Made by a program: the position numbers and the translations under genes. A DNA stretch of 64,000 nucleotides, taken from an uncultured Chloroflexia bacterium (GTDB lineage: Bacteria > Chloroflexota > Limnocylindria > Limnocylindrales > CSP1-4). The DNA lies in contig CAVVCZ010000006.1 of NCBI GenBank assembly GCA_963746845.1, positions 384,001 through 448,000 on the forward strand. Direction: 5' to 3'. The notes under the pieces were generated by a model. The model saw nothing but the letters and a program-made list of their open reading frames with translations, was not told the DNA's origin and did not search any database. Within the stretch, counting starts at the first letter, position 1, and every line of letters starts with the position of its first letter. This document shows positions 1 to 18,987 of the stretch, one piece after another.

Positions 1-134
1 GCCTCGAAGGCCGCTGCGAGCTCGTCGATGAACCGCTGCGGCAGCGCGTGGCCGGCGCCCGAGCCGCCGATCACGATCGTCGCGCCGTCACGGACGAGCC
101 CCACGGCATCCCGGACCTCGAGGACCTTCGTCAC
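1..134 (-). CDS. Acyl-CoA:acetate/3-ketoacid CoA-transferase (YdiF/Pct-like), N-terminal part; runs off window
   Basis: Manual translation from GTG at 134 (GTGA overlap with the SDR stop): MTKVLEVRDAVGLVRDGATIVIGGSGAGHALPQRFIDELAAAFE, typical family I CoA-transferase N-terminus. Confidence 0.7.
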   Translation of the reverse strand, partial: MTKVLEVRDAVGLVRDGATIVIGGSGAGHALPQRFIDELAAAFE

Positions 135-886
135 GGCATGTAGCCTCCGGCGTTGGGATTGAGGGTTTGCCCGAGGAACAGGCCAGCGGCGTCCGACAGG
201 AGGAAGATCACCGCCTCCGCCACCTCGTCGGCGCGGCCGAACCGCCCGAGAGCCATGTCCCGCAGCCGGCGCCGGCCTTCGTCGCTCTCGACGAGCTCGG
301 TGGTCATCTCGGTGATCGTGACGCCCGGCGCCACGGCGTTGATCCGGATGCCCTGCGGGCCGAACTCCCGGGCAAGCGACCGGGTCAGACCGATCAAGCC
401 GGCCTTGGCCGCGCTGTAGGCGGCGGTCTCGGCGATCCCCATCTGACCGAGCCGGGAGGCGATGTTCACGATCGAGCCGCCACCCTGGTCGAGCATCACC
501 GGAATGGCGGCCCGGATCGTCCGGAACGAGGCAGTCAGGTTCGTCGCGATGACGGCGTCCCACGTCTCCGGGGCGAGCGCGAGGGTCGGCCCGCGCTGGT
601 CCCTGCCGGCGTTGTTCACGAGCCCGTCCAGCCGGCCGAACCGTTCCACGACCGACCGGACGAGGGCTTCCGCCTGGGCGCCGTCGGCGACGTCGGCCCG
701 GAACGACTCGGCGGTCGCTCCTGTCGCCCGGGCGCGCTCGACGGTTCGCACGGCGGCGTCCGCGGCGTGCCCGTAGTGGACCGCGACGGTCGCTCCGGCC
801 GCAGCCGCCTTCACCGCGACCTCGGCGCCGATCCCCCGGCTGCTGCCGGTGACGAGGACGACGCGACCGTCGAGGACGCCGGTCAT
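131..886 (-). CDS. Short-chain dehydrogenase/reductase (FabG-like)
   Basis: TGSSRGIG Rossmann motif, NNAG, YSAAK catalytic motif, NAVAPG. Confidence 0.9.
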   Translation of the reverse strand: MTGVLDGRVVLVTGSSRGIGAEVAVKAAAAGATVAVHYGHAADAAVRTVERARATGATAESFRADVADGAQAEALVRSVVERFGRLDGLVNNAGRDQRGPTLALAPETWDAVIATNLTASFRTIRAAIPVMLDQGGGSIVNIASRLGQMGIAETAAYSAAKAGLIGLTRSLAREFGPQGIRINAVAPGVTITEMTTELVESDEGRRRLRDMALGRFGRADEVAEAVIFLLSDAAGLFLGQTLNPNAGGYMP

Positions 887-1899
887 GCCGGCGCCGCCGT
901 CGATCCGCGCAGGACGACCACCGTCGGCAGTCGGACCGGGGCGGGCAGGTCGCCGTGGAGCATCCGGTCCGCGTGCTCGAAGCCGAGGCGGCCGAGATCG
1001 CGGAGCGGGAGGCGGACGGTGGACAGGCTTGGCGCCGTCAGGGCGGCGGTCGAGATGTCGTCGAAGCCGGCGACCGAGATCCGGCCGGGGACGTCGATGC
1101 CGCGGACGGCCAGCCGCTGGAGCGTGCCCAGGGCGAGGAGGTCGTTCGCGCAGCAGACGGCGCTGAACGACAGGCCCGACCCGAGCAGCGCGTCCACCCC
1201 GAGGGCACCGCCGTCGACGTCGAACGTGGTCGCGACGACCAGCGCCTCGTCGTACGGGATCCCCGCCTCGGCCAGCCCGCGCCGATAGCCCGCGAGCCGC
1301 TCCCGGGCGACATACAGCGAGCGCGGTCCGGCCAGAAAGGCGATCCGGCGATGGCCCAGCCCCACGAGCGATGCGACCATCGCCGCGATCCCGGCCGCGT
1401 TGTCCACGCCGACCTCCGGCTCGCCACCGGCGTATGGGGAGAGGTGGACGATCGCCGCGCCGTCGGCGCGCATCGCCGCGACGTGCCGCTCCATCTCCGC
1501 CTGGATCTCCGGGTCGTCGAGTCCGCTCCCGGCGAAGACGATCGCCGCGGCCCGCATCGAGCGAACCAGCCGGACGTACGACCGCTCGCGCTCGGCGTTG
1601 CGCTCCGAGCTGCAGGTGATCACGAGATAGCCCGACGACGACGCTCCGTCCTCGACACCCCGGACGATCTCGGCGAAATATGGGTCGGTGATGTCGTGGA
1701 CGATGACCGCGACGACCGGCACCCGGCTCTTCAGGAGGCCGCGAGCCAGGGCGTTCGGGACGTAGTCGAGCTCGCGGGCCGCCTCGAGCACGCGCTCCCG
1801 CGTCGCTGCGCTCACGGGGTAGTCGGCGGCGGACACGACCCGCGACGCCGTCGCGGGCGACACGCCGGCCCGTCGGGCGACCTCGGTGATGGATGCCAC
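883..1899 (-). CDS. LacI-family transcriptional regulator
   Basis: SITEVARRAGVSPATASRV HTH, YVPNALARGL hinge, periplasmic-binding-type C-domain (ISVAGFDD, PSLSTV); start moved to GTG at 1899. Confidence 0.92.
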   Translation of the reverse strand: MASITEVARRAGVSPATASRVVSAADYPVSAATRERVLEAARELDYVPNALARGLLKSRVPVVAVIVHDITDPYFAEIVRGVEDGASSSGYLVITCSSERNAERERSYVRLVRSMRAAAIVFAGSGLDDPEIQAEMERHVAAMRADGAAIVHLSPYAGGEPEVGVDNAAGIAAMVASLVGLGHRRIAFLAGPRSLYVARERLAGYRRGLAEAGIPYDEALVVATTFDVDGGALGVDALLGSGLSFSAVCCANDLLALGTLQRLAVRGIDVPGRISVAGFDDISTAALTAPSLSTVRLPLRDLGRLGFEHADRMLHGDLPAPVRLPTVVVLRGSTAAPA

Positions 1900-1907
1900 G
1901 TGCGGAA

Positions 1908-3395
1908 TCAGTACGGGAACGGATAGGACCGGGGCTCGTCGCGGACGGTCACCCACTGCCACTCGGTGAACTCGTCCCAGTTCGCCGCACCGCCGAACCG
2001 GCTGCCGTTGCCCGACGCACCCATGCCCCCGAACGGGATCGTCGCTTCGTCATTCACGGTCTGGTCGTTGACGTGGACCATGCCCGAGCGGATCCGCTGC
2101 GCGAGCGCCAGCCCGCGCGAGATCGAGCGGGAGTACACCGCGCCCGTGAGCCCGTACTCGCTGTCGTTCGCGAGCGCGAGCGCCTCCTCGTCCGTGTCGA
2201 AGACGACGACCGGCGCGACGGGCCCGAAGATCTCCTCTCGCCAGGCGGCCTGATCGGCGGTGACGTCGGTCAGGACGGTCGGCCGGTAGAAGAGGCCCTC
2301 GTGCGTCCCGCCGACGACGACGGTGGCGCCGCCCTCGACCGAGCGCCTGACAATCCCGTCGACCCGCTCCAGCTGCTTCTGGTTGACGATCGGCCCGAGG
2401 TCCACGTCCTCCCGGAACGGGTCGCCCAACCGCAGCCGCTTCGCCTTCTCGGTCAGCAGGTCCACGTAGTCCCCCGCGACGCTCCGATGGACGATGTGGC
2501 GGCCGGTGGCGAAACAGACCTGGCCCTGGAACTGGAACGAGGCAAAGGCGCCGGCCGAGGCTGCCGCCTCCACGTCCGCGTCGTCGAGCACGACAAAGGC
2601 GTTGTTCCCGCCGAGCTCGAGGCTGACCCGCTTCAGGAGCTCGCCGGCGAGGGCGCCGACCCGGCGTCCGGCGGCCGTCGACCCGGTGAACGAGACGCGG
2701 TTGACGTTCGGATCGGTGACGATCGCCTCGCCGACCTCGGCACCGCCGAGGACGACGTGGAACAGCCCGTCGGGCAGGCCCGCCTCACGGAGGATCGCCT
2801 CGAACACCAGCCCGCCACAGACGGGCGTCTGGGGGTCCGGCTTGAGGATCACGGCGTTGCCGACCGCCAGGGCGGGGGCGACGACCCGCATCCCGAGCAC
2901 GCTCGGCGAGTTCCACGGCGTGATCGCGCCGATCACCCCGGCCGGGACGCGGCGCAGCATCGACAGCCTGCCCGGCACCACGCTCGGCACGAGCTGGCCG
3001 TACGGCTGGAACGGCATCGTCGCGGCGGCGTGCAGCTCGCCGACCGCGAAGTTCTGCTCGTGGTGCATCTTGTTCCGGTGGGCGCCGGTCTCGCGCTGCG
3101 TCCACGTCCCGAACTCCGGCCGGTGCGCCTCGTAGATCTCGGCGGCCCGGCGCAGGATCGCGGCACGCTCCGCATAGCTCGTCTCCGCCCATGCCGGTTG
3201 GGCCGCGGCCGCCGTGGCGGCCGCCCGGGCGACGTCGTCGGGCGTCGCCTGCGCGACGGTCAGAAGCGGCCGGCCGGTTGCCGGCTCGCGAACTTCGCGC
3301 GGCGCGCCGGTTCCCGGGCGCCAGTCGGCGAGGAACGGATCGAGCCAGCCCGGGCTCGCGGACTCCAGGGCCGCCTCAGGCGCCGTCGTGGCCAT
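1908..3395 (-). CDS. Aldehyde dehydrogenase (benzaldehyde dehydrogenase II-like)
   Basis: ITPWN, FTGSTAAG, LELGGN, GQVC catalytic Cys, EEIFGP, PFGGMGASG. Confidence 0.92.
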   Translation of the reverse strand: MATTAPEAALESASPGWLDPFLADWRPGTGAPREVREPATGRPLLTVAQATPDDVARAAATAAAAQPAWAETSYAERAAILRRAAEIYEAHRPEFGTWTQRETGAHRNKMHHEQNFAVGELHAAATMPFQPYGQLVPSVVPGRLSMLRRVPAGVIGAITPWNSPSVLGMRVVAPALAVGNAVILKPDPQTPVCGGLVFEAILREAGLPDGLFHVVLGGAEVGEAIVTDPNVNRVSFTGSTAAGRRVGALAGELLKRVSLELGGNNAFVVLDDADVEAAASAGAFASFQFQGQVCFATGRHIVHRSVAGDYVDLLTEKAKRLRLGDPFREDVDLGPIVNQKQLERVDGIVRRSVEGGATVVVGGTHEGLFYRPTVLTDVTADQAAWREEIFGPVAPVVVFDTDEEALALANDSEYGLTGAVYSRSISRGLALAQRIRSGMVHVNDQTVNDEATIPFGGMGASGNGSRFGGAANWDEFTEWQWVTVRDEPRSYPFPY

Positions 3396-3903
3396 CGCTG
3401 TCTCCTTCCGGCGGTGCGGCGAACCGCTCTGCGTAGGTCCTGGGAGCGTCGTCGACGACCGCCCGCTTGCCGGTCGCAGGGTCGCGCCAGACGGGTCCCC
3501 GGGCGAGGACGGCGTCGATCAGGCCCTCCTCGATGTACGGGGGAACCTCCCAGGTGCGGATCGTGATCGCCGCCTGGCCCGGGTAACCGATCAGCTCTCG
3601 GACCCGCTTGTCGGTGTAGTAGCCGGCCACGATCGCGAGCTGTAGCGCGCCGAGGGCGGCGGGATCGTCCCGCTCGAGCGCCGCGACCCGCGCCGCCGGG
3701 TCGTCGGCGAGGCTCGCACCGAGCGCCGTCCGCACCGGGCCGAGAAGGTCCGGGCGGGCGTTCAGCACGAAGCGCAGCCGATCGTCGGTCAGGACCTCGG
3801 CTGCCGACGGCATGCCGTGCGCGGCCGGGATGAGATGGTCCGCAACGGTCGACAGCGAGGCCCGCTCCGCCTCGGTCAGGATCGTGGCCTCGTCGAGCGT
3901 CAT
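3376..3903 (-). CDS. Gluconate 2-dehydrogenase subunit-3-like small partner of the GMC oxidoreductase
   Basis: ATG at 3903 overlaps the GMC stop; ADHLIPA...MPSA and GYYTDKRVRELIGYPG motifs; C-terminal part of track ORF 3376..5544. Confidence 0.7.
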   Translation of the reverse strand: MTLDEATILTEAERASLSTVADHLIPAAHGMPSAAEVLTDDRLRFVLNARPDLLGPVRTALGASLADDPAARVAALERDDPAALGALQLAIVAGYYTDKRVRELIGYPGQAAITIRTWEVPPYIEEGLIDAVLARGPVWRDPATGKRAVVDDAPRTYAERFAAPPEGDSDGHDGA

Positions 3904-5513
3904 GCCGGCACCTGCTGCTCGAAGCGGGTCTCCACCATGTGATCCGCTGCCCGCAGGGCGATCGCCACGATCGTCGAGGTCGGGTTCACCCCGGACGAGG
4001 TCACGAAGCACGAGCCGTCGACGACATACAGGTTCGGCACGTCGTGGGTCCGGTTCCAGCGATCGAGCACGGAGGTCTCCGGGTCGTCGCCCATCCGCGC
4101 CGTCCCCAGGAGGTGCCAGCCGGAGTACCGCATGAGCCGGTCGACCTCGATCTTGTACGCGCCGGCCGCATCCATCGACTCTTTCGCCCGCTCGATGTGG
4201 AAGTCGAGCATCCGGCGGGCGTTGTCGGCCATCGTGTAGTGGACCTCCGGTGCCGGGATGCCCGACGAGTCGGTGACCGAGCCCGAGAGCACGATCCGGT
4301 TCGCCTCGTCGGGGAGGTCCTCGGCGAAGAGGCCCCAGTTTGCGCCGTGGCCCAGATGGGACTTCACGTGGGTGTGGTGCTCCGGGCCCCAGGCCTGCTC
4401 GCCGGCCCGGCTCGGAAGCGCGGTGTTGATCGGCCCGCCGGTGGGCGCCAGGCCCCAGCGGGCGCCGCGGACGAAGCCGCGCTTCTCGTCCGTCTCGTAG
4501 AACTCCAGACTCTCGATCAGGTCGCCGAACTGGCCCGCCCAGCTCATCAGCGGCTCCTCGAACAAGCCGGCGACGTTCGCGAACGGGTGCATCATCAGCC
4601 GCTTGCCGACGAGCCCCGAGGAGTTCGCGAGGCCATCCGGGTGGCGGGCGCTCGCGGACAGGAGGAGCAGCCGCGGCGTGCCGATCGCGTTCGCGGCGAG
4701 GATGACCACCTTCGCCGCCTCGAAGTGCTCGTTGCCATCGCCGTCGATCCAGGTGGCGCCGGTCGCGAGCCCCTGCTCGTTCGTCTCGACCCTCCGGACC
4801 CGCGCGCCGGTCACGAGCTTCGCCCCCAACCCGATCGCCTTCGGCCAGTGGGTGAGGTCGGTGGACGCCTTCGCGCCCTCGTTGCAGCCCGACTGGCAGG
4901 TGGATCGCTGGACGCAGATCCGGCGACCGTCGTATGGCGTCGAGTTGATCGAGTTGAACTCGGGCCACCAGTGCCAGCCGAGCTTCGTCATGCCCCGCGC
5001 CACCTTCAGGCCCGCCGACCCGATCGGGAGCGGCGGCATCGGTGCGTCCTCGGCGTCCGGCGGATAGGCCGGATCGCCGGGCAGCCCCGACACCCCGAAC
5101 TGCCGGTCGGTCCGATAGAAGTACGGCAGCAGCTCGAAGTAGTCGATCGGCCAGTCGTCGGCCACCCCGTCGAGCGAGCGGACCCGGAAATCGGACGGCA
5201 GTGCCCGTGGCCAGGCCCCCGCGAAGATGATCGTCGAGCCGCCGACCGCGTTGTACATCAGCGGCGAGACGGGGGTGTCGTCCTCGACGATCGGGTAGTC
5301 CGCGGCGAGTCCGCGGATGTTCGGACTGGTCGCCCAGTCCTTGCGCGCCTTCAGCTCCCAGTCGAGCTTGTTGCCGGGATAGTCGTCGCGATCGAGCCAC
5401 CCGCCCTGCTCGAGGCAGACGACCCGGAAGCCGGCCTCGGCGAGCCGCAGCGCGACAACCCCGCCGGACGCGCCGGCGCCGATGATCAGAACGTCTGCGG
5501 GGTCGCTCGCCAC
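3900..5513 (-). CDS. GMC-family FAD oxidoreductase
   Basis: IIGAGASGG, AVGGSTI, C-x3-C-x3-C cluster (CVQRSTCQSGC), HLLGTARMG, NLYVVDGS, NPTSTI; GGAGG RBS. Confidence 0.92.
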   Translation of the reverse strand: MASDPADVLIIGAGASGGVVALRLAEAGFRVVCLEQGGWLDRDDYPGNKLDWELKARKDWATSPNIRGLAADYPIVEDDTPVSPLMYNAVGGSTIIFAGAWPRALPSDFRVRSLDGVADDWPIDYFELLPYFYRTDRQFGVSGLPGDPAYPPDAEDAPMPPLPIGSAGLKVARGMTKLGWHWWPEFNSINSTPYDGRRICVQRSTCQSGCNEGAKASTDLTHWPKAIGLGAKLVTGARVRRVETNEQGLATGATWIDGDGNEHFEAAKVVILAANAIGTPRLLLLSASARHPDGLANSSGLVGKRLMMHPFANVAGLFEEPLMSWAGQFGDLIESLEFYETDEKRGFVRGARWGLAPTGGPINTALPSRAGEQAWGPEHHTHVKSHLGHGANWGLFAEDLPDEANRIVLSGSVTDSSGIPAPEVHYTMADNARRMLDFHIERAKESMDAAGAYKIEVDRLMRYSGWHLLGTARMGDDPETSVLDRWNRTHDVPNLYVVDGSCFVTSSGVNPTSTIVAIALRAADHMVETRFEQQVPA

Positions 5514-5586
5514 GGGCAGCCTCCTCCTGGTGACGGACGGCCACCGGGCTCGATCAGGACCCGGTGAAGGGGCGGATGGTCGTCCG

Positions 5587-5592: not shown

Positions 5593-5645
5593 AACCTTTG
5601 CTGCCCCCCGAGGTCGACGTCCTGCCGGGCGATCCGGGCGCGCCG

Positions 5646-6608
5646 TCAGCCGCCGGTCGTGGCCCCCGCGACGGCTTCGCGGGGAGCCGGCTCCGGCAGC
5701 AGGCCGACCTCGGCGAGGACAGCCGCCAGGTGGGCCCGCTCCTCGTCGCCGAGCGGCAGCAGCGGCCGCCGGACATGGGCCCCTTCGAGGCCCGGCACGC
5801 CGAGGATCCGGAGGCATTCCTTCAGCCGCACGCGGTAGTCGCCGACGGGCGCGGCGAAGACGACGTCCGCCAGCCGCTGGACGCGCCGGCCGAGGGCCCG
5901 GGCGTCGTCGATCCGGCCGTCGTTCCAGGCGTGGATCATGTCGACCTGCTCGCGGGTCATCACCGCGCCGAAGCCGATGAGGGCGCCGGTCGCGCCGAGC
6001 ATGAACGACTCGAGGATGAAGTTGTCGTTGCCGGTCAGCAGGGTGATCGGCCGCGGCAGGTCGGCCAGGAGGCGGGCGGTGTCGACGAAGCGGCGAGCGT
6101 CGAAGGACGCCTCCTTCATCGCGACCACGCCGTCGACCGACGCCATCGCGCGCAGCGTGTCCGGCTCGAAGTTCAGCCCGGCCAGGGCCGGCTGGAGCTG
6201 GAAGAGGATCAACGGCAGGCCGACGTCGGCGATGGCCTCGTGGTACCGGACCGGGACGCGTGGGTCGAGCGGCTCGCTCAGGTAGGCCGGGATCGGGAAG
6301 ACCAGGAACGCGTCCGCGCCGGCGGCCTTGAAGTCCCTCGCCTGGCGGACCGCGGCATCGGTCGACGGCCCGGCGAGGCCGGCCACGATCGGCAGGTCGG
6401 TGACGTCGTCGACGATCTCGAGGACGCGGACCTTCTCGTCATGGGTGAGATGCGGCCCTTCGCCCGTGTCGACGTTGATCGCCAGCGCGACCGGGCCCTG
6501 ACCCGCGACCCAGGCGATGTACCGGCGGAGCGCCGGCTCGTTGATCCGACCCTCGGCATCCATCGGCAGGACGGTCGCGGGGATGAGGCCGTCGAGGTTC
6601 AGCGTCAT
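5646..6608 (-). CDS. Dihydrodipicolinate synthase (DapA/NanA) family aldolase/lyase, non-canonical
   Basis: GLIPATVLPMD, NVDTGEG, Schiff-base lysine in AMKEAS; start ATG at 6608 with GGAG RBS. Confidence 0.85.
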   Translation of the reverse strand: MTLNLDGLIPATVLPMDAEGRINEPALRRYIAWVAGQGPVALAINVDTGEGPHLTHDEKVRVLEIVDDVTDLPIVAGLAGPSTDAAVRQARDFKAAGADAFLVFPIPAYLSEPLDPRVPVRYHEAIADVGLPLILFQLQPALAGLNFEPDTLRAMASVDGVVAMKEASFDARRFVDTARLLADLPRPITLLTGNDNFILESFMLGATGALIGFGAVMTREQVDMIHAWNDGRIDDARALGRRVQRLADVVFAAPVGDYRVRLKECLRILGVPGLEGAHVRRPLLPLGDEERAHLAAVLAEVGLLPEPAPREAVAGATTGG

Positions 6609-6731: not shown

Positions 6732-7517
6732 ATGGCCCAGCTCGACATCTTCAGCCTGCACGGCCGCGTGGCCCTGATCCCGGGCGGCGGTGGCTCGATC
6801 GGTGCGGCGATGGCCGAGGCATTCGCCGGCGCCGGGGCCAGGGTGGCTGTCACGGGCCGGACGGCGGAGACGCTGGCGGCCGCGGTCAAGGGCGTCGAAC
6901 GCGCGGGGTCGGAGGGTCTCGCGATCGTCGGCGACGCGACCGTCGAGGCCGACGCGGACCGGATGGTGGCCGAGACCGTGAAGCGGTTCGGGAAGGTCGA
7001 CATCGTCGTCAACGCCGTCGGCGGCGGCGCCGGCGAGGTGCTCCATCCGGCCGAGTCCTACCCCCGCGACGCCTGGGACTGGATCATGGAGCTCAACGTC
7101 CGGAGCACGATCGTGCCGACACAGGCCGCCGTCCGCTCGATGATCGAAGCGGGCCATCCGGGTGCGATCCTGAACCTGACATCCGTGCGGGCGAACCTCG
7201 GGATCAACGCCGGCTACTCCGCCTACGTCGCGGCGAAGGGGGCGATCAGCTCGCTGACCCGGCAATGGGCGACCGAGTGGGCGAAGCACGGTGTCCGGGT
7301 CAACGCGATCATGCCCACGTTCGTGGACACGCCCCAGGTCGCTTCGATGCTGGCCAACCCCGAGTTCAAGGCCGGCCTGGTGAATCGAATCCCGATGCGC
7401 CGGATCGGCGAGACGCGGGACCTCGTGGGACCGGCGATCTTCCTCTGCTCGGATGCCGCCTCGTTCGTGACCGGCCAGGTCCTCGGGATCGACGGCGGGC
7501 TCACCGCCACCCAGTAG
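6732..7517 (+). CDS. Short-chain dehydrogenase/reductase (gluconate 5-DH/KduD-like)
   Basis: FSLHGRVALIPGGGGSIG, YVAAKG, RQWATEW, VRVNAI; ATG at 6732 after GAGGAG. Confidence 0.88.
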   Translation: MAQLDIFSLHGRVALIPGGGGSIGAAMAEAFAGAGARVAVTGRTAETLAAAVKGVERAGSEGLAIVGDATVEADADRMVAETVKRFGKVDIVVNAVGGGAGEVLHPAESYPRDAWDWIMELNVRSTIVPTQAAVRSMIEAGHPGAILNLTSVRANLGINAGYSAYVAAKGAISSLTRQWATEWAKHGVRVNAIMPTFVDTPQVASMLANPEFKAGLVNRIPMRRIGETRDLVGPAIFLCSDAASFVTGQVLGIDGGLTATQ

Positions 7518-9750: not shown

Positions 9751-11877
9751 TCAAGCGCGGCCGGCCGCCGTTTCGTCCTCGCGGGTTCGGCCGGCGAGCC
9801 GGATCAGATCCTCGTGGAGCTCGAACCAGGCGCCGTGGAAGCTGTCGACGCGGGGTGAGGCGACGAACCGATGGTCGCCCGCACGGGCCCGATCGAGCGC
9901 GGCCGCGAGGCGAAGGCGGTACGGCGCCAAGCGGGGGTTCGCGGCGGCGATGGGCTCGAGCCATCGATCGGCGTCCGCGCCGATCGATGTCAGCCGGTCG
10001 AGGACCTCCGTGTCGTAGGCCGCGTCGGTGTGGTCGTTGACGACCGGTTCCCCGTCGGTCGGGCGGAGCTGCCACGCGGTGACCGCGTCCTTCATCCGGC
10101 GGTCCAGCTCGAGGAAGCCATCGAGCGCGGCGGTGGCCGCCTCCACGCCCCAGGCATCACGGTCGGCTTCCAGGAGCTCCGCGGCGCGGGTGCTCCCCGT
10201 CTCCGTCAGCCGGTAGGCACCCGCCACGGTCGCGGCGAGGCCGTCGACGACGAGCTGGTCGAGGAGGGGCTGGACCGCGTCGCCCGTCGACAGGAGCGCG
10301 TCGGCCAGGGTCGCGGTCGTCGCGAAGCCCTTCGTCGAGAGGCGGCGCACGGCGTCGTCGAGCGTGGCCGGGGCCGCCGAGCCGGGAGTCGCCGCCGCCT
10401 CCGCGGCCTCCTTGGCGCCGATGTCGACTCCGAGGTCGCGCGCCCAGCCGAGGAGTGTCCGCGCCTCCGCCACGACGTCCGTGCGACCCGGGATCACGCC
10501 GGCGAAGACCTCGCCGGACGAGCCGTCGATCGAGATCGTGTCGCCTTCTCGCAGCTCGCGGTCGGCGATCCGGACCACGCCGTCCCCGACGTGAACGCCG
10601 CCCGCGCCGACAACCGCCGGGATCCCCCACCCCCGCGCCACGACGGCGGCGTGGCTCGCGAGGCCGCCCCGCGCCGTGAGGATGCCCGCGGCCCGGGCCA
10701 TCCCGTGCACGTCGTCGGGCGAGGTCTCGGCGCGAACGAGGATGACGTCGACGCCGGTGTCGGCGACCCGCGCGGCCGCTTCCGGCGAGGTCGCGATCAC
10801 GCCGCTGGCGAGACCGGGCGAGGCACCGAGGCCGGTTGCGAGCGGGAGCAGGTAGCTGCTTCTCCCGGTCGAGACCTTCGGCGGATCCACGAGGAAGTGC
10901 GCCACCCGTTCGACCGCCTCCGTTCGCGACAGCGGGAACGACGGGTCCTCGGCCATGTCGACCGCGATCCGGAGGGCCGCCTGCGGGCTGCGCTTGCCGA
11001 CCCGCGTCTGGAGCATCCACAGGCGGCCCCGCTCGACCGTGAACTCGATGTCGCAGAGGTCCGCGAAGTGGCGCTCGAGCCGGTCGGCGGCCGACCGCAA
11101 CTCGGCCGCGGCCGCCGGGATCCGCTCGTCGAGGGCGGCGATCGGCTCGGTCGCGTGCGTGCCCGCGACGACGTCCTCGCCCTGGGCGTCGAACAGGACG
11201 TCGCCGTAGAGGGTCGGTTCGCCGGTCGCGGGGTTGCGCGTGAACCCCACGCCCGTGGCCGAATCGGGACCGCGGTTGCCGAAGACCATCGCCTGGACGG
11301 TGACCGCGGTCCCGAGGTCGTTCGGGATGCCTTCCTTCGCCCGGTACGCCTTCGCGCGATCGCTGTTCCAGGAGCGGAAGACGGCCTCGACTGCGAGGCG
11401 GAGCTGCGCCCACGGGTCCTCGGGCGGCTCGGCGCCGACGATGTCGCGGAACATCGCGACGAAGCGGCGCCGGCAGTCCTCGGCGAATGCGGCGTCGCCG
11501 GTGACGGCGGCCAGCCCGGCCGTGGTGGCCTCGTTCAGGCCGAGATCCAGGATGGTGTCCATCATCCCCGGCATCGAGACGGGCGCCCCGGACCGGACGC
11601 TGACGAGGAGCGGATCGGCGGCGTTGCCGAACCAACGCCCGACCGCCGACTCGACCTCGGCCATCCGCCCCCGGAGCTCGTCGTCGAGGCCGTCGGGCCA
11701 GCCGTCGGCGAGGAACGTCCGGCAGGCCTCGGTCGTGATGACGAGGCCGGGCGGGACGGGCAGCCGGAGGTCAGGTCCAAGCATCACCCCGAGGTTGGCC
11801 GCCTTCCCGCCGATGAGCGCGAGGACCTCGTCGGGCGGGAGCCCGTGGTCGTGGTCGAGGGGATAGGCCCAGGTCAT
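9751..11877 (-). CDS. ppdK: Truncated pyruvate phosphate dikinase (ATP-grasp plus phospho-His domain, no PEP/pyruvate barrel) fused to a wHTH/Rv1126c-like C-terminal domain
   Basis: GGKAANL, PLLVSVRSGAPVSMPGMMDTILDLGLN, VQAMVFGN, AQGEDVVAG, DIEFTVE, GGLASHAAVVARGWG; last ~200 aa are unrelated to the PPDK barrel. Confidence 0.82.
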   Translation of the reverse strand: MTWAYPLDHDHGLPPDEVLALIGGKAANLGVMLGPDLRLPVPPGLVITTEACRTFLADGWPDGLDDELRGRMAEVESAVGRWFGNAADPLLVSVRSGAPVSMPGMMDTILDLGLNEATTAGLAAVTGDAAFAEDCRRRFVAMFRDIVGAEPPEDPWAQLRLAVEAVFRSWNSDRAKAYRAKEGIPNDLGTAVTVQAMVFGNRGPDSATGVGFTRNPATGEPTLYGDVLFDAQGEDVVAGTHATEPIAALDERIPAAAAELRSAADRLERHFADLCDIEFTVERGRLWMLQTRVGKRSPQAALRIAVDMAEDPSFPLSRTEAVERVAHFLVDPPKVSTGRSSYLLPLATGLGASPGLASGVIATSPEAAARVADTGVDVILVRAETSPDDVHGMARAAGILTARGGLASHAAVVARGWGIPAVVGAGGVHVGDGVVRIADRELREGDTISIDGSSGEVFAGVIPGRTDVVAEARTLLGWARDLGVDIGAKEAAEAAATPGSAAPATLDDAVRRLSTKGFATTATLADALLSTGDAVQPLLDQLVVDGLAATVAGAYRLTETGSTRAAELLEADRDAWGVEAATAALDGFLELDRRMKDAVTAWQLRPTDGEPVVNDHTDAAYDTEVLDRLTSIGADADRWLEPIAAANPRLAPYRLRLAAALDRARAGDHRFVASPRVDSFHGAWFELHEDLIRLAGRTREDETAAGRA

Positions 11878-14132
11878 CGGTCGGCGGCCGCATCCTGGAG
11901 CGCGCGCCAGACCCGCTCGGGGGTCAGGGGCAGGTCGCGGATCACGACGCCGGTCGCGTCGTGGACTGCCGCGGCGACCGCCGGCGACACGGGCAGCAGG
12001 GCGCCCTCGCTCATGCCCTTCGCGCCGTACGGCCCCGGACCGTCCGCGTTCTCGATCGCGTCGCTCTCCATCCGGGCCGGCAGGTCCATCGTCGTCGGGA
12101 TCCGGTAGTCGATCGCCCCGAGGTTCCGGATCCGGCCGCCGTCGTCGAGGATGTAGTGCTCCATCAGCGTGTGGCCGAGGCCCATGATCGCCGCGCCCTC
12201 GTCCTGGCCGCGGACCTGCCCCGGATGGAGCGCCTTCCCGACGTCCGACACCGTGACGTGGCGCGTCACCGCCACGTCGCCGGTCTCGCGATCCACCTCG
12301 ACCTCGACGGCGGTGCAGTTGAACTCGTAGAACGCCGACGTGCCGCCGAGGGGGTGGTCCGGCTCGGCCTCCTTGCGGGACTCGCCGATGCCCATCACCT
12401 CGCCGCCCAGGCGGCCGAGGCCGCGCGCGGCGACATCGCGGATCGGCTCGACGCGGCCGTCCGGCAGCCGGACCTCGCCGCGATCGACGCTCACGCCGGC
12501 CGGATCGATCCCGTCCGCGGCGGCCGCCATCGCCCCGACCTTCGATTGGATGTCGCGACAGGCGGCCAGCACCGCGTTGCCCATCAGGACCGAGGACCGG
12601 CTCGCCGAGGTCTGTTGGTCATAGGGCACGACGGCCGTGTCGCCCATGACGACGGTGACCCAGTCGAGCGGGGCGCCGAGCTCGTCCGCCGCGATCTGGG
12701 CGAAGATCGTCCGGGCGCCCTGGCCCATGTCCGAAGTGCCGGCGTTGACGACGACGCTGCCGTCGACCAGGAGGCGCACGGTCGCGTACGAGAGACCGGT
12801 CGTCGGGCCCGATTTGAGCCCGACGGCGATGCCGCGGCCGCGACCCGGGACCTTCGGCCCGCCCCAGTCGATCAGCTCGGCCGCCCGCCGGACGGCCTGG
12901 GCCCAGTCGCCATCGGCCGGCGTGTCATGGGGGATGAACGCCTCGTCGGGGCGAGCCAGGTTCCGCAGGCGGAGCTCAAGCGGGTCGATGCCCAGCTGCT
13001 CGGCCGCCTCGTTCATGTTCGACTCCACCGCCCAGATCTGCTGCGGATTGCCGAACCCGCGGAACGCCGTCGACGGCACGGTGTGGGAGAGGACGCTCCG
13101 GGCGTGGATCCGGACGCTCGGCACGCGATACGGCCCGTTGGCGGTGTAGCTGCCCTTGGCCACCGTCCGGTCGGCGATGTCGGCGTACGCCCCGATCAGG
13201 TAGTCGGCCTCGATGTCGCGGAAGACGAGCGTCCCGTCGGGGCGGAAGCCGGATCGGACTTGCACGCTCGACGCACCGCGGCGGACGGCCTGGAATGTCT
13301 CCTCGAGGGTCAGGACGAGCCGGACCCGGCGGCCGGTCGCCCGGGCCATGAACGCCAGCAGTGGCTCGTACTTCGCGTGCTGCTTGCCACCGAACGCGCC
13401 GCCCGGATCCGGCGCGATGACCCGGACCTTCGCGAGCGGCAGATGGACCAGCTCGGCGATGACCCGCTGGAGCCAGTACGGGTGCTGGATCGCGCTCCAG
13501 ATCACGAGACCGTCGCCCTCCGGCTCGGCCATGAACGCGTGCGGCTCGATCGCGAACTGGGTGACCATCGGGAAGTCGTACGTCCCCTCGACGACCACGT
13601 CGGCGTCGGCGGCCGCGGCATCGACGTCGCCCCAGCCGTAGTGGTGGTCGTGCAGGATGTTCGTGCCGGCGCACGGGTCCCCCGGCCGGAGCGACGGGTC
13701 CTGGACCAGCGGCGCGTCCGGGGCGAGCGCGGAGGCGATCGTGTGGAGGGCGGGCAGCTCCTCGAACTCGACGCGGACGAGGGCGGCGGCCTCTTCCGCG
13801 GCATCCAGGGTCTCGGCGGCGACCGCGGCGACGGGCTCGCCGTGGTACTTCGTCTCGCCGACCGCGAGGACCGGCCGGTCGCGTCGCTGCGGCCCGAACC
13901 GGGGCATCGGATCGGGCAGGTCGGCGGCGGTCATCACCAGGCGCACGCCGGGCACGGCGAGCGCGGCCGAGGTGTCGATCGCGCCGATCCGGGCCCGCGC
14001 GACGTCGAGCGCGACGAGCTTCACGTGGAGGGCGTCGTCGTGGGGCAGGTCGGCGACGTATCCCTGGGCGCCGGTCACCCGCGCCCGTCCACCCCCACGG
14101 GCAGGCGACGCGCCGACGCCGTCCGCGCTCAC
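11874..14132 (-). CDS. Xanthine dehydrogenase-family molybdopterin-binding (large) subunit
   Basis: GGAFGGK, AFRGFGNPQ, DMGQGARTIFAQIAADELG, GPYGAKGMSE; GTG start at 14132 overlaps the stop of the Fe-S subunit. Confidence 0.92.
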   Translation of the reverse strand: MSADGVGASPARGGGRARVTGAQGYVADLPHDDALHVKLVALDVARARIGAIDTSAALAVPGVRLVMTAADLPDPMPRFGPQRRDRPVLAVGETKYHGEPVAAVAAETLDAAEEAAALVRVEFEELPALHTIASALAPDAPLVQDPSLRPGDPCAGTNILHDHHYGWGDVDAAAADADVVVEGTYDFPMVTQFAIEPHAFMAEPEGDGLVIWSAIQHPYWLQRVIAELVHLPLAKVRVIAPDPGGAFGGKQHAKYEPLLAFMARATGRRVRLVLTLEETFQAVRRGASSVQVRSGFRPDGTLVFRDIEADYLIGAYADIADRTVAKGSYTANGPYRVPSVRIHARSVLSHTVPSTAFRGFGNPQQIWAVESNMNEAAEQLGIDPLELRLRNLARPDEAFIPHDTPADGDWAQAVRRAAELIDWGGPKVPGRGRGIAVGLKSGPTTGLSYATVRLLVDGSVVVNAGTSDMGQGARTIFAQIAADELGAPLDWVTVVMGDTAVVPYDQQTSASRSSVLMGNAVLAACRDIQSKVGAMAAAADGIDPAGVSVDRGEVRLPDGRVEPIRDVAARGLGRLGGEVMGIGESRKEAEPDHPLGGTSAFYEFNCTAVEVEVDRETGDVAVTRHVTVSDVGKALHPGQVRGQDEGAAIMGLGHTLMEHYILDDGGRIRNLGAIDYRIPTTMDLPARMESDAIENADGPGPYGAKGMSEGALLPVSPAVAAAVHDATGVVIRDLPLTPERVWRALQDAAADR

Positions 14133-14629
14133 CGGGATGCGACCTCCGCGGCGCCGGCGTCCGCGGCGTCGGCCGCGGCCAGCACCGCCTCGATGATCTG
14201 CTCGTAGCCCGCGCAGCGGCAGAGGTTGCCCGCCAGCCCCTCCTCGACCTGCGCGCGGGTCGGGTGTGGCACCTCGGCGAGGAGGGCCTGCCCCGAGACG
14301 AGCTGGCCCGGGATACAGAACCCGCACTGGGCCGCGCTCGTGTCGAGGAACGCCTGTTGGAGCGGGCTGAGGGCTCCGGCCGTCGACAGCCCCTCGACGG
14401 TGATGACGATCGCCCCGTCCATCTCGGCCGCGAGCACCAGACACGAATCCACGCTCTGTCCGTCGACGAGGACCGTGCACGCGCCGCACTCGCCGACGAG
14501 GCAGCACTCCTTCGTGCCCGTCAGGCCGAGGTCGTCACGCAGCGCCTGGAGGAGCGTGTGGTGCGCGAGCACCTCCACGCGACGATGACGGCCGTTGACC
14601 GTTAGCTCGATCGAGAGCGGCTCCGTCAT
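14129..14629 (-). CDS. Xanthine dehydrogenase-family (2Fe-2S) small subunit
   Basis: GTKECCLVGECGACTV, QCGFCIPG, GNLCRCAGY. Confidence 0.95.
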   Translation of the reverse strand: MTEPLSIELTVNGRHRRVEVLAHHTLLQALRDDLGLTGTKECCLVGECGACTVLVDGQSVDSCLVLAAEMDGAIVITVEGLSTAGALSPLQQAFLDTSAAQCGFCIPGQLVSGQALLAEVPHPTRAQVEEGLAGNLCRCAGYEQIIEAVLAAADAADAGAAEVASR

Positions 14630-15489
14630 CGAGCGCTCGCCAGGCGCCCGACGGCGGCCGTCACCCCTCGAAGGCCGAGGACCCGGAGCATCGCCAGCCG
14701 GTACTCGGGGCTCGCCCGCATCGACGTCGGCGACGGGCTGGCGCCCGCGAAGAGCGTCTCGAGCAGGTCCCGCTTCGCGTCGTCCGGCGCGGCCGGATCG
14801 GCGAGCGTTCCGGATTCGTCAGCGACCACCACCGGCCGCGGTCCGACGCTGCCGTAGGCCAGCCGCGTCGTGCCGTCCGGCGCGACCGAGACCGCCAGGG
14901 TCACGGACGCGAGGTCGTGACCGCGTCGCCTCGTCCGCCGGAGGTGGACGGATCCCCGCGGCCCGTCGGCCACGGGAAGCTCGATCGCCTCGACCAGCTC
15001 GCCCGGCTCGAGGGTCGTCCGCCCGGATCGGACGAAGAAGGCGTCCAGCGGGATCCGTCGGCCCCCTCCGGGACCGCGAGCCACGATCCGGGCGTCGTGG
15101 ACGAGCAGCGCAGGCGCCGTATCGGCTGCGGGCGAGGCGTTGCACATGTTGCCGGCGAGGGTTGCCCGGTTCCGGATCTGGACCGAGCCGACGAAGAGCG
15201 CCGCTTCCGCCAGGGCCGGATAGTCGCGCCGGACGCGCGGGTTCGCCAGGATGTCGGTCATCGTCGTCAACGCCCCGAACCGGACATGGCCGTCGACCTC
15301 GCGGATCTCGCCGTCCAGCTCGACGACGCGCTTCACGTCGACGACGACGTCGGGCCGGATCGAGCCATCCCGCAGCCGGATGATCAGGTCGGTGCCGCCG
15401 GCCAGCAGCCGAGCCGCGGGCCCGTGCTCGGCCAGCAACGCCACGACGTCGCGAAGCGCCGTCGGTCGCTCGTACGCGAACGGTCGCAT
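14626..15489 (-). CDS. Xanthine dehydrogenase-family FAD-binding medium subunit
   Basis: MRPFAYERP, LLAGGTDL, QIRNRATLAGN, ASPAADT; start ATG at 15489. Confidence 0.93.
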   Translation of the reverse strand: MRPFAYERPTALRDVVALLAEHGPAARLLAGGTDLIIRLRDGSIRPDVVVDVKRVVELDGEIREVDGHVRFGALTTMTDILANPRVRRDYPALAEAALFVGSVQIRNRATLAGNMCNASPAADTAPALLVHDARIVARGPGGGRRIPLDAFFVRSGRTTLEPGELVEAIELPVADGPRGSVHLRRTRRRGHDLASVTLAVSVAPDGTTRLAYGSVGPRPVVVADESGTLADPAAPDDAKRDLLETLFAGASPSPTSMRASPEYRLAMLRVLGLRGVTAAVGRLASAR

Positions 15490-15496
15490 CGGGCGA

Positions 15497-16384
15497 TCAG
15501 AGGACCGCGTCGACCTGATCGAGCAGGACCTGCGGGGTCGCCGCCCGGACGAAGAAGAAGGGCCGGTCCGCGAAGCGCTCCACGAAGGCGGACCGTCGCT
15601 CGCGGAGCACATCCGTGTCGACCAGCGGCATCGGGATCCGCGGCGCGAGGAGCTCGTTCAACAGGAAGTAGTTCTGGAGAGAGTGAAGGGTCTGGAACTG
15701 GCGCTCGAACGGGATCATCTCGGCGAGGCCGGGCTCGAAGTTGCCGTCGATCGCCGGGAGGACGACGACGTCGACCACGCTGGGCTCCTCGTACAGCTCC
15801 CACGACGGCATGTCGCCGAAGAACTTCTGGACGCCGCGCTCCGGGGCCGCCTTGTCGGCCCGTTCGGTGCCCTCGGTCCGCTTCTTCAGGAAGACCGACT
15901 TCGAGCCCATCACGGCCCGCGCATCCTCGTCGATCACCGTCGTCTCGGTCGAGATGAGCGCGGCGCCGCGGCGGCAGGCCTCGATCTGGCCCATCGACTT
16001 GCCATGGTTCGATTCGCCACCGAGGAACAGCACCGTCCGGTCGCGATAGCGCACAGCCGACGAGTGGAATGGATGCAGGCCCAGCTCCTCCATCCGGAGC
16101 GCGAGCATCGTGACGATCACCTTCTGGATCGGGCCGGCGGGCCAGGGGCCGGTGAACGACATCCGCCGACCGTCGTAGGCGATCGACTTCTCGCCGTCCT
16201 GGCGCCAGACGACATCCGGATCCGGCAGGGTCACGTCTGGCGAGATCCGGACGTCGGCGAGCCGGTAGTTGAGGAAGCTGAGGTCGTCGAGGACGTGATC
16301 GCGAGGCTCCGCTCCGTACACGTCCACCCGCAGCCGCGCGGCGCCGGCGGACATCTCCTCGCTGAGCTGCAACGGGTCGTTCAT
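15497..16384 (-). CDS. HPr-kinase-like P-loop protein of unknown function
   Basis: FHSSAV...[12 protein letters not shown] resembles the HxxxV...GxSGxGKS signature of HprK/PEPCK-type P-loop proteins; translationally coupled to the upstream gene. Confidence 0.6.
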
Positions 16385-18135
16385 CCGCCCGCGTTCGTCG
16401 CCTCGAGCACCTCGACGGTCCCCGCCGAGCCGTCGACCCGGATCCGGTCGCCCGTCCGGATCCGCCTCGTCGCGACCGAGGTCCCGACGACGGCCGGGAT
16501 GCCGAACTCCCGCGACAGCACGGCCGGATGGGAGGTCGTCCCGCCGGTGTCCGTGACAAGGCCGGCGATCTTCGTGAACAGGACGACCCAGGCCGGGTTG
16601 GTCATCTGGCAGACGAGGATGTCGCCATCGGCCACGTCGTCGAACTCGTCCACCGTCATCACGACGCGGGCGATCCCGTCGATCCTGCCGGGTGACGCCG
16701 CGATGCCCGTGACGGGTCCTTCGGCCTTCGGCCGACCCTGGTGGAACCGCTCCGGATAGCCCCAGTTCACGAGATACGGGAAGGCGAGCTGGGATGGCGT
16801 CACGGTTCCGATCCAGTTCGGCGGATGGAGCGCCTTCGACGCCTCCCGCTCGGCGCGTCGCTCGGCCACCAGCCGGCGGGCGCCGACCGCCCCGGCGTCG
16901 CCGATCAGCATCCGCAGCTCGTTGTAGCGGAGGAACAGCACGTCGTCCGGCTGGTCCAGCCGGCCGGCCTCCACGAGCTTCCGGCCGAGGGCGATGAGGA
17001 CGAGGCGGACGTGCGCGTTCGCGCCCTGGTCGATGTAGAAGTGATGGTCCGGCGTGAGCGGCGCCATCCGGAGGTTCGTCTCGTTCGCCGCCCGCATCGC
17101 CGCGAGCCCGTCGCCGGTCAGCCCCGCCACGATCTCGTCGGAGGCGGCGGCGATGTCCTGGCGCATCGCGTCGATGGCCTTCGGGTAGTCGTAGTCCGTG
17201 TCGAGGTAGCCCTTGACCAGGTCCAGGACCGGCTCCATCTGCTCGCGGATCGTCGGGAACACGAACTCATGGCTCCAGACGGCATGCCACCCGAACTCGC
17301 GCTGGTACGGGACGACCCGCTCGGCGATGAAGCGGCGCCCGCGTTCCGAGGCACGCAGCCCGGCGGCGATCGCCTCGGCGTCACCGGCTCCGAAGATCGC
17401 CTTCAGCTCGGGGTCGTCGCGGACCTCGTTCTTCATGCGCCAGAGCGCCTCGATCGAGTCCCAGTTCCGATCCGAGGCCGAGTTCTGGAGCCGGCCGAGC
17501 AGCGCCTCGTCCACGGTGCCGCGGGTCTGCTCCATCACCGCCCGGAGCTTCAACGTCGCCGACAGCTGGGCGAAGTTCAGCATCCAGTGGATCTTCCAGT
17601 GCCGGTCATGGATGTCGATCGCATCCTCGAGCAGGGTCGCGGCCTCGGCCAGGGAAATGTCATCGACCGCGTCGAGACGCTCCTCGAGATAGGCGAAGTT
17701 GCGCTGCATCTCGGGGACGAGCCGGTCGCGCCACCAGTCCGCGAAATGCTCGCCGTAGACCGGCAGGACCGTGTCGAGGTAGGCGCCCATCCCGCCGGCG
17801 AACGAGGCGTCGCGGGGCACGCGGGCGGTGTAGGTGGAGCTGTACTCGGTGCCTTCGATCCGGAGGTCAGGGTCGGCGGGGATCGCGGTCGTGTAGACGT
17901 AGCCGTTCACGTTCTTTGCGAGCCAGTCGACGGCGAACGGCGTGCCGAACCGACGGAACATGTGGTCGCAGCTGAGCCACCAGCCGCCGATGTCGAAGAA
18001 CATCGGGCTGACCGGATGCGGGATGTGGAGATCGTCGTAGACCCAGAAGAAGTCCTTCTCCGTCTCGGAGGCCCACGTCACCGGGAACGTCTCGTCGCCG
18101 AGGAACCGGTCGAGGATCTCCTCCGGCTGTGCCAC
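16381..18135 (-). CDS. PEP-utilising enzyme with C-terminal phospho-His swivel domain (phenylphosphate synthase subunit / rifampin phosphotransferase-like), lacking ATP-grasp
   Basis: GIAASPG...[13 protein letters not shown]...[21 protein letters not shown]; long helical N-terminal domain; GTG start at 18135 with GGAGG RBS. Confidence 0.85.
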
Positions 18136-18284
18136 GGGCTGCTCCTCCAGGCGCGCGGACGGGGTTGGCGGCCGGACCTCGATCGGCGGTCGCCGCCGCA
18201 TCTGGTCGAATCCCTGCGTCACGCCATGGTGGCATAACGACCGGCCCCGGACGGCCCGGCCGCCCCGCCACCGCGGGTCCCGCG

Positions 18285-18987
18285 TCAGGCAGTCGTCTTC
18301 GCGGCCGCCTTCTTGCCAGTCCCGTTCGAGGCCTCGAGCGCCTGGCGTGCCTTCTCCCAGTCGGCCCGGAACTGGACGATCCCCGTGGTGGTGAGCGGGT
18401 GATGGACCATCTGCTGGAGGACCTTGAACGGCAGGGTCGCGATGTGCGAGCCGGCCAGGGCCGCCTGGGTCATGTGGAGCGGGTTGCGGATCGAGGCCGC
18501 GAGGACCTCGCTGTCGAGCTCGTGGATCGTCACGATGTCGACCAGCTCGCGGATGACGATCATCCCGTCCTGGTTGATGTCGTCGAGCCGGCCCACGAAC
18601 GGCGACAGGAGCGACGCGCCGGCCTTCGCCGCGAGCAGCCCCTGGTTCGCGGTGAAGATCAGGGTGCAGTTCGTCTTGATCCCCTCGTCCGCGAAGCGCG
18701 AGATCGCCTCGAGACCCTCCTCGCTCATCGGGACCTTGACGACGATGTTCGGGGCGAGCTTCGCGAACGCCCGGCCCTCGGTCAGCATCCCCTCGACGTC
18801 CTCGGCCACGACCTCGGCCGAGACGGGCCCGGGCGTGATCGTGCAGATCTCCTTGAGGACCTCCTCGTACGTCCGGCCGCTCGTCTTGGCGAACAGCGAT
18901 CGGGTTCGTCGTGACGCCATCGAGGACGCCCCAGCGGGCGACGGTCCGGATCTCGTCGATGTCGGCGGTGTCGAGGAAGATCTTCAT
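18285..18987 (-). CDS. tal: Transaldolase (small TalC/Fsa family); +1 frameshift near 18899-18900
   Basis: MKIFLDTAD...DGVTTNP joins SLFAK...[36 protein letters not shown] in another frame. Confidence 0.88.

Follow-up and report, generated by a model that had tools for sequence, protein, structure and literature searches.

A conserved operon of uncultured Limnocylindria that probably couples a two-component dikinase to a molybdenum hydroxylase

We herein describe an operon in a stretch of 64,000 nucleotides (hereafter, the window) from an uncultured Chloroflexia bacterium of the order Limnocylindrales (GenBank assembly GCA_963746845.1, contig CAVVCZ010000006.1, positions 384,001 to 448,000). 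The operon runs along the minus strand from 18135 to 9751, with a transaldolase-family gene (tal) upstream, and probably serves a dikinase-coupled molybdenum hydroxylase. Its conserved core consists of a dikinase acceptor subunit with a phosphohistidine swivel domain (PHis), the three subunits of a xanthine dehydrogenase (XDH)-family enzyme (XDH-M, XDH-S and XDH-L) and a truncated pyruvate, phosphate dikinase (PPDKtr). We postulate that ATP would be bound by PPDKtr's ATP-grasp domain and that the phosphoryl group would pass to the swivel histidine of PHis, His536, either directly or via the swivel histidine of PPDKtr itself. PHis would then transfer it onto a phenolic, lactim or enolic hydroxyl of a small molecule held in its acceptor domain, and the XDH-family enzyme would subsequently oxidise (hydroxylate) this molecule, most likely as the phospho-ester, since masking of the electron-donating oxygen would favour nucleophilic attack by Mo-OH. 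The phosphate would be removed later, possibly by the metallo-beta-lactamase (MBL)-fold hydrolase encoded nearby or by a small P-loop protein of the operon. The individual chemical steps, the sequence in which phosphorylation and hydroxylation take place and the identity of the substrate are modelled here on the relatives of these proteins; the domain content, the invariant swivel histidines, the near-obligate co-occurrence of PHis, XDH and PPDKtr and the lack of another free ATP-grasp protein in the genome are observed directly.

A first-pass annotation of the window had suggested that the two incomplete dikinase proteins complement each other to activate a substrate, which is then oxidised, ring-opened and aldol-cleaved into the pentose phosphate pool, and had not recognised the gene set as a described pathway. 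Our collective results reveal a real and strongly conserved system in which the idea of complementation is supported; the kind of system, however, is already known.

The conservation of the operon was assessed in a species-level genome collection, by alignment of orthologs only. PHis relatives occur at no fewer than 500 places in this collection, and we analysed the best 80 of these at least 500 loci, which represent close relatives (77-90% identity) rather than distant phyla and belong almost entirely to Limnocylindria or other Chloroflexota metagenome-assembled genomes (MAGs). Genes downstream of PHis were counted in the 50 loci whose downstream context reaches at least 9 kb (Table 1) and genes upstream in the 73 loci with at least 1.5 kb. 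PHis relatives co-occur with the XDH genes and PPDKtr in 49 of the 50 loci, the single exception for both being locus L054, and the association extends beyond close relatives: among 200 other sampled genomes of the phylum (201 including the source genome), the complete XDH-M/S/L set lies near the PHis ortholog in all nine more distant loci with sufficient context. Full-length PHis orthologs (49-71% identity) are present in 11 of the 200 genomes, a tally which includes G038 and G145, two unpublished genomes that none of our claims depends on. XDH-L orthologs of at least 62% identity are found in exactly the four sampled genomes that carry close PHis orthologs (62-71%). The MetE-like, dihydrodipicolinate synthase (DHDPS)-family, glucose-methanol-choline (GMC) and adjoining small-ORF (open reading frame), aldehyde dehydrogenase (ALDH), LacI and SDR1 (short-chain dehydrogenase/reductase) genes (positions 131 to 9702) are, on the other hand, variable cargo of sugar-acid character outside the conserved machine. 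Thus, the downstream route put forward in the first-pass annotation does not hold as a unit (DHDPS 9/50, GMC 6/50, ALDH 3/50, LacI 1/50); of its components, only the transaldolase (TAL) link recurs, in 57 of the 73 loci.

PHis combines an RPH/HpeH-like substrate domain (residues ~1-470) with a C-terminal swivel domain bearing the motif TDTGGTTSH, in which His536 (codon ~16528-16530) is invariant in 79 of 79 loci. The Pfam family PEP-utilizers matches residues 786-856 of the long ORF, which correspond to the C-terminus of PHis, and no ATP-grasp domain (PPDK_N) was detected in the protein by Pfam. Partial matches were obtained to the NCBIfam models PRK08296, RedH and RPH, and among solved structures rifampin phosphotransferase (5fbs/5hv1; E 4e-28, residues 377-578) is the sole relative that matches more than the swivel domain. 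PHis therefore has both features that mark the acceptor subunit of two-component dikinases, that is, an RPH-like domain and a C-terminal T/SxxGGxxxH swivel.

Its predicted partner, PPDKtr, comprises an ATP-grasp domain (residues ~1-345) and a swivel domain with the motif GGLASH, whose His409 (codon ~10651-10653) is invariant in 56 of 56 loci. The protein aligns with solved PPDKs at E ~1e-115 only up to residue ~480 (residues 129-480/496), hence the PEP/pyruvate barrel is absent, and no Pfam family matches past residue 455. It scores 497.4 bits against the VadK family model NF004531 (cut-off 456) and shares with that family the ATP-grasp domain, the swivel histidine and the lack of a barrel. 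This agrees with the truncated PPDK of the first-pass annotation, which had missed, however, a further conserved C-terminal region of 240 residues (45-65% identity across 45 related loci). The model of this region (pLDDT 92.1) suggests a MarR-like winged helix (wHTH; residues ~503-576, positions ~10150-10371) followed by a four-helix bundle (residues ~574-701) in which many His, Asp and Glu positions are invariant. In VIA-align comparisons the predicted winged helix superposes on MarR chains with Z 11-12.3 and rmsd 1.1-1.7 Å over ~72 residues, and a profile search with the extension matches IdeR, MntR and MarR; the bundle gives Z 12.5, which is within the range usual for helical bundles, and Foldseek returned no match to the extension model at E <=0.001.

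That these two proteins belong together, as had been surmised, is borne out by the conservation of PPDKtr beside PHis, by the inventory of the genome and by gene pairs on plasmids. The genome, which is 92% complete, contains two PPDK_N genes, PPDKtr and one on contig C4 with a swivel domain, and PPDKtr is its only ATP-grasp protein without an acceptor domain of its own. A short PPDK_N-only gene is not present in this genome and was found only beside distant PHis orthologs. Pairs of PEP-utilizing and truncated-PPDK genes recur on plasmids of Rhodococcus and Diaphorobacter, where the counterpart of the C-terminal extension is a separate gene of ~200 codons, annotated as hypothetical or MarR, that lies between or beside the two (Diaphorobacter, L136; Rhodococcus, L138 and L139). 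The Diaphorobacter homolog is 42.5% identical to the extension over 181 residues (E 7e-33); these stand-alone homologs came from the plasmid search, the search of protein databases with the extension having returned mainly fragments of the same fused proteins. The three-gene plasmid modules adjoin ring-hydroxylating dioxygenases or biotin carboxylases, not molybdenum enzymes. Two further plasmid matches were set aside, a Rubrobacter gene annotated ppdK (~900 aa) and a Methylibium 'pyruvate, phosphate dikinase' (~840 aa), both of which, judged by length, appear to be full-size PPDKs and have no molybdenum enzyme beside them.

Although the gene set had not been recognised as a described pathway, its kind has been described before. 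HpeHI, CreHI and PpsAB form a subfamily of two-component dikinases that phosphorylate phenolic hydroxyls via a swivel histidine (PMC12167813); a separate study, on acetovanillone, shows that the phosphate is retained during the following step, after which a HAD phosphatase takes it off. PHis resembles the acceptor subunits of these systems in its RPH-like substrate domain, its C-terminal T/SxxGGxxxH motif and the placement of ATP binding on a separate polypeptide, and the residue before its swivel histidine is Ser, as in CreH and PpsA; its identity to Hpe/Cre-like plasmid homologs is 26-32%. The differences concern the partners. The ATP subunit of HpeHI, CreHI and PpsAB is an ATP-grasp alone of ~40 kDa, whereas the window encodes a multidomain VadK-type protein of 708 aa that has additional domains and a swivel histidine of its own, and the enzymes that work with those dikinases are carboxylases or P450s, in contrast to the molybdenum hydroxylase proposed here.

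For the pairing with a molybdenum enzyme, the precedent is the 3hpd cluster of Ensifer adhaerens HP1, in which orf9 (PPDK) and orf10 (PEP-utilizing) are required for the HpdA-dependent conversion of 3-hydroxypyridine (bioRxiv 10.1101/2020.01.08.898148). In that study, 2,5-dihydroxypyridine was the sole product seen, with no intermediate, and the mechanism was left open (bioRxiv 10.1101/2020.01.08.898148); our literature searches found no later mechanistic work on the pairing of a dikinase with a molybdenum hydroxylase. By gene content, both the 3hpd cluster and the window place an XDH-family molybdenum enzyme beside PEP-utilizing and PPDK-like genes, and related clusters contain a GntR regulator and an ABC transporter. 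The 3hpd cluster has in addition a separate SRPBCC subunit (HpdA3) and the maleamate-pathway genes hpdBCDE, neither of which is part of the window operon: among the ORFs of positions 1-19000, Pfam detected no SRPBCC, dioxygenase, deformylase, amidase or isomerase family. The sole SRPBCC protein of the window (Polyketide_cyc2, 59125-59805) is encoded 40 kb from the molybdenum enzyme, beside a Rieske/DUF2231 membrane protein (58243-59805 for the two). Beyond 3hpd, the window operon has the PEPCK-like P-loop protein, the wHTH/four-helix fusion on the PPDK, the pair of MBL and SDR genes and the TAL gene. What is new in this version of the system is the VadK-type loader with its own invariant histidine and MarR-like/four-helix fusion, together with the mini phosphoenolpyruvate carboxykinase (PEPCK)-like protein.

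A distant version is carried on the megaplasmid of Thermomicrobium roseum DSM 5159, where a PEP-utilizing gene, a PPDK_N-only gene and XDH genes are accompanied by cyclase, FAA-hydrolase, ABM, VOC, GntR and ABC-transporter genes. A 205-aa hypothetical gene with a weak match to DUF4202 is located there between the PPDK_N gene and that of the FAD subunit, and the same cluster includes a Tm-1-like ATP-binding protein and a 'PEP hydrolase family' protein (6490-8593 of the T. roseum record). A UPF0261 gene was noticed in another locus with a distant ortholog, L036.

Several observations weigh against the dikinase-coupled hydroxylase. The only precedent study saw no product besides 2,5-dihydroxypyridine, and the closest solved relative of the molybdenum subunit is a reductase, not a hydroxylase. 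The swivel histidine and the MarR-like winged helix of PPDKtr would fit a regulatory kinase equally well, and the more distant PHis orthologs (L036, L042 and T. roseum) pair with a short PPDK_N-only gene. Furthermore, the accessory genes of the window look sugar-related, unlike the ring-cleavage genes beside distant orthologs, and this assembly has frameshifts in both tal and the MetE-like gene.

Given the resemblance to VadK, PPDKtr may instead be a regulator, namely a VadK-like autokinase with a MarR-like DNA- or ligand-binding module that would sense the substrate or the energy state and control the operon or its enzymes, PHis being charged by another donor. VadK (Rv1127c) of M. tuberculosis is described as a truncated PPDK that autophosphorylates on a histidine and acts as a regulatory histidine kinase of the methylcitrate cycle (PMC13400623). 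PPDKtr, which passes the VadK family model, likewise consists of an ATP-grasp domain and a swivel histidine without the PEP/pyruvate domain; it differs from VadK in being encoded within a catabolic operon, next to an acceptor subunit, and in its fusion to the 240-aa wHTH and helical-bundle region. The MarR-type fold predicted for its extension points in the same direction, as do the annotation of extension homologs as MarR regulators and the fact that the window operon lacks the GntR/FCD gene found after PHis in 51 of the 80 loci. Nevertheless, we regard a purely regulatory PPDKtr as unlikely. The genome offers PHis no other free ATP-grasp; the two genes are together in all but one of the 50 loci; and the trio of PEP-utilizing, ~200-aa extension-like and truncated-PPDK genes recurs in catabolic clusters of other phyla. 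Moreover, the GntR regulator and the fused extension coexist in most loci, hence the extension does not just stand in for that regulator.

The accessory genes suggest another alternative, in which the operon would handle an aldehyde or enol derived from a sugar, not a heteroaromatic ring, and the XDH-family enzyme would be an aldehyde oxidoreductase of the sort used when sugars are oxidised non-phosphorylatively. The resulting acid or enol would then be phosphorylated by the dikinase and enter central metabolism via the TAL-family enzyme. TAL-family genes do indeed accompany PHis in two types, an FSA-type tal in 43 and a long TAL in 26 of the 73 loci, the latter being divergent from PHis in 28 of 28 cases at a distance of 126-603 nt. 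On the XDH subunits, the NCBIfam models of glyceraldehyde dehydrogenase subunits score about equally to the XdhABC models. Among solved structures, the GMC protein is closest to the large subunits of fructose and glucose dehydrogenases (E ~1e-73) and SDR2 to the gluconate 5-dehydrogenase-like 1vl8 (E 9e-46); a DHDPS/KDG-aldolase-like gene and a LacI gene complete the set in the window, and some of the related loci also contain ROK, SIS, DeoC and PsuG-like genes. However, the characterised relatives of PHis all act on phenolic or antibiotic hydroxyls, each sugar-type gene is present in just 1-9 of the 50 loci, and distant orthologous clusters have genes of a ring-cleavage type (VOC, FAA hydrolase and cyclase). 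The FSA-type tal is tied to CTP synthase in 39 of the 73 loci, so it may be a mere conserved neighbour. We thus consider a sugar-derived substrate improbable. Three loci (L063, L087 and L108) have most or all of the sugar-type block, located on the opposite side of PHis.

Vitamin B6 catabolism employs a GMC oxidase, an SDR and an MBL lactonase. It was considered as a candidate pathway and dropped: the best solved relatives are of glyoxalase II type for the MBL protein (E ~1e-11), gluconate and glucose dehydrogenases for the SDR and fructose and glucose dehydrogenases for the GMC protein, with no B6 enzyme among the matches listed. Other genes that recur near the operon among the 80 loci encode an EamA transporter (19 loci), a pseudouridine-5'-phosphate glycosidase-like Indigoidine_A protein (12), HAD (10), GntR/UTRA (9), ROK (8), DeoC (6), SIS (6) and URO-D (5) proteins, and several conserved ORFs there have no Pfam family.

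With regard to the molybdenum enzyme itself, the closest solved chain to XDH-L is the alpha subunit of 4-hydroxybenzoyl-CoA reductase (1rm6, E 5e-96), followed by quinoline oxidoreductase (E 1e-69). A Cys-rich 4Fe-4S loop in the FAD subunit defines 4-hydroxybenzoyl-CoA reductase. XDH-M has a single Cys after Met42 and hence lacks this loop, and the family models score far below their cut-offs (TIGR03194, 435.4 vs 994.55; TIGR03195, 120.3 vs 404.55; TIGR03193, 162.9 vs 257.8); we therefore rejected membership in that family. Phenylphosphate synthase and 4-hydroxybenzoyl-CoA reductase belong to the same anaerobic phenol pathway. It is very improbable that the enzyme works reductively, with phosphorylation converting the hydroxyl of a ring into a phosphate that would leave in a reductive dehydroxylation, since, despite the nearest solved chain and the presence of phenylphosphate synthase among the closest characterised dikinases, the TIGR03194 and TIGR03195 scores and the missing loop for the extra 4Fe-4S cluster speak against it and the sole genetic precedent for the pairing is a hydroxylation.

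The P-loop protein of the operon had been called HprK-like, and this description holds for the fold. ATP-PEPCK and HPr kinase/phosphorylase (HprK/P) share one P-loop fold, and our comparisons place the protein nearer to the former. It belongs to no Pfam or NCBIfam family, Hpr_kinase_C remaining unmatched even up to E 10 and PEPCK_ATP (PF01293) reaching E 0.17, below threshold. Its family profile finds the ATP-PEPCK of Thermus (1j3b) at E 0.004 and HprK at E 0.48, and the alignment with 1j3b pairs the motifs AGExxK...HxSA...GxxxxGK[ST], which are common to PEPCK and the window protein. Consistently, Foldseek matches the predicted model (pLDDT 91.2) to ATP-PEPCKs at E ~1e-7 (TMq 0.41-0.45) and to HprK/P at E 1.6e-4 to 1e-3 (TMq 0.24-0.30), and an Atlas search also names both. 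Thus, with no domain match and a weaker fold match to HprK/P, mini-PEPCK-like appears to be the closer description on profile and predicted structure, the protein having 295 aa as compared with ~530 aa for ATP-PEPCK. With 184 representatives at E <=0.001 among 1.84 billion, the family is small, and its gene is present in four of the 201 genomes of the phylum sample, all four with PHis. We also considered the protein as a PSRP/PDRP-like kinase acting on PHis, at the Thr located two positions ahead of its swivel histidine, which was not supported: this position reads T, V, V, V in the sampled genomes with the P-loop gene and is mostly T in those without it.

If the dikinase-coupled hydroxylase is taken to its fullest form, one may speculate about a phosphoryl cycle, in which PPDKtr would dock via its wHTH/four-helix module, the phosphoryl group would be relayed from its own histidine to that of PHis and then onto the substrate, the molybdenum enzyme would accept the phospho-ester only, and the mini-PEPCK would consume the aryl or enol phosphate as PEPCK does PEP, either returning it to ADP or coupling its loss to carboxylation. 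We see only a slim chance that all of these parts hold together; if they did, the operon would represent a previously undescribed way of activating substrates for molybdenum-dependent hydroxylation, widespread in soil Chloroflexota. Why a molybdenum hydroxylase needs an ATP-driven dikinase is a question that has stood since the 2020 Ensifer study, and the variant described here adds unusual parts to it, namely the VadK-type loader (with two swivel histidines in one system), the wHTH/helical module and the mini-PEPCK. The distant version in the cultured T. roseum DSM 5159 makes the question amenable to bench work. More than 4,000 metagenome proteins match PHis, and the relatives nearest to it come mainly from uncultured soil Limnocylindria; hence the operon probably handles a common soil compound.

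The positions of the genes (Table 1) were assigned from the third-position G+C content of each frame (GC3), the window having a G+C content of ~72%, and from subsequent Pfam and NCBIfam scans, and they uphold those of the first-pass annotation. Three neighbouring pairs overlap by 4 bases: PHis and the P-loop gene, XDH-M and XDH-S, and XDH-L and PPDKtr.

Table 1. Genes at the start of the window and their presence in related loci (of the 50 loci with 9 kb or more downstream)
Gene or product	Position	Strand	Basis and remarks	Related loci
tal, FSA/TalC-type transaldolase family	18285..18987	-	Pfam TAL_FSA; frame broken ~18900	
PHis, dikinase acceptor subunit, 584 aa	16381..18135	-	Pfam PEP-utilizers at C-terminus, without PPDK_N	
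Mini PEPCK-like P-loop protein, 295 aa	15497..16384	-	Profile and fold match; no Pfam/NCBIfam family	37/50
XDH-M, XDH-family FAD-binding subunit	14626..15612, probable start Met42 ~15489	-	Pfam FAD_binding_5, CO_deh_flav_C	49/50
XDH-S, XDH-family 2x[2Fe-2S] subunit	14129..14629	-	Pfam Fer2_2, Fer2	49/50
XDH-L, XDH-family molybdopterin subunit	11874..14135, start approximate	-	Pfam Ald_Xan_dh_C, MoCoBD_1, MoCoBD_2	49/50
PPDKtr, VadK-type truncated PPDK, 708 aa	9751..11877	-	Pfam PPDK_N and PEP-utilizers	49/50
MetE C-terminal-like gene	8451..9702	-	Pfam Meth_synt_2; frame broken ~8593-8602	9/50
MBL-fold hydrolase	7543..8439	+	Pfam Lactamase_B	36/50
SDR2, gluconate 5-dehydrogenase-like, paired with MBL gene	6735..7517	+	Pfam adh_short_C2	29/50, limited by flank length
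DHDPS/NAL-family aldolase	5646..6608	-	Pfam DHDPS	9/50
GMC flavoprotein dehydrogenase	3900..5513	-	Pfam GMC_oxred_N, GMC_oxred_C	6/50
Small ORF, 175 aa	3376..3903	-	Adjoins GMC	3/50
ALDH	1908..3395	-	Pfam	3/50
LacI-family regulator	883..1962	-	Pfam	1/50
SDR1	131..886	-	Pfam	3/50
CoA-transferase, first ~42 codons	1..128	-	Rest outside window; Pfam CoA_trans E 3e-32 in genome stretch	

Two of these genes, tal and the MetE-like gene, are present as annotated earlier, their frames, however, each being broken by a one-base insertion that relatives lack. In tal, which starts at 18987, one extra A at ~18900 shifts the frame after ~29 codons, with the result that the TAL_FSA matches are split over two frames, the first ~29 residues lying in the other one; the longer piece scores 231.8 bits against TIGR00875 (fructose-6-phosphate aldolase/TalC; cut-off 245.95), as measured on the broken frame. 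In the MetE-like gene, an additional base at ~8593-8602, a site with a GGG run at 8593-8595, shifts the frame ~50 codons before the end. Among relatives that cover the sites, the extra base is absent in 37 of the 37 shown for tal and in 8 of 8 for the MetE-like gene, and scattered one-base indels were also seen in several related long-contig MAG loci; an assembly error is a possible source of both insertions. Short-read contigs from four runs on positions 8000-19100 are short and of low depth, leaving the MetE-like site without usable cover; at 18901, one contig of run X4 lacks the extra base, and run X2 (depth 12.7) shows no such difference. Of the 11 sequencing runs listed for the source, each has a small share and none is RNA.

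The CoA-transferase had likewise been named correctly, as the scan of the surrounding genome stretch confirmed, with only its first codons falling inside the window. Beyond the window start, the island goes on over 6910-14128 of the adjoining genome stretch (L133) with this CoA-transferase (12575-14128, minus strand) and genes for a luciferase-like monooxygenase, an FAA hydrolase, a creatininase and an amidohydrolase, and a sugar-type ABC transporter is encoded there as well; in the related locus L034, a creatininase gene follows ALDH. On the other side, 14 kb from the operon, the window contains a pentose-phosphate block (33067-43996) with a PfkB kinase, transketolase, a PGI-domain protein, 6-phosphogluconate dehydrogenase, G6PD and OpcA, hence the frameshifted FSA-type tal is not the sole route into the pentose-phosphate pathway. 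In this block, the PGI-domain ORF begins within an amidase ORF (36398-38125). Between the operon and the CTP synthase gene (21766-23466) there lie an ECF sigma factor gene (19790-20326) and an overlapping ORF of 514 aa (20208-21752), the latter without a Pfam family.

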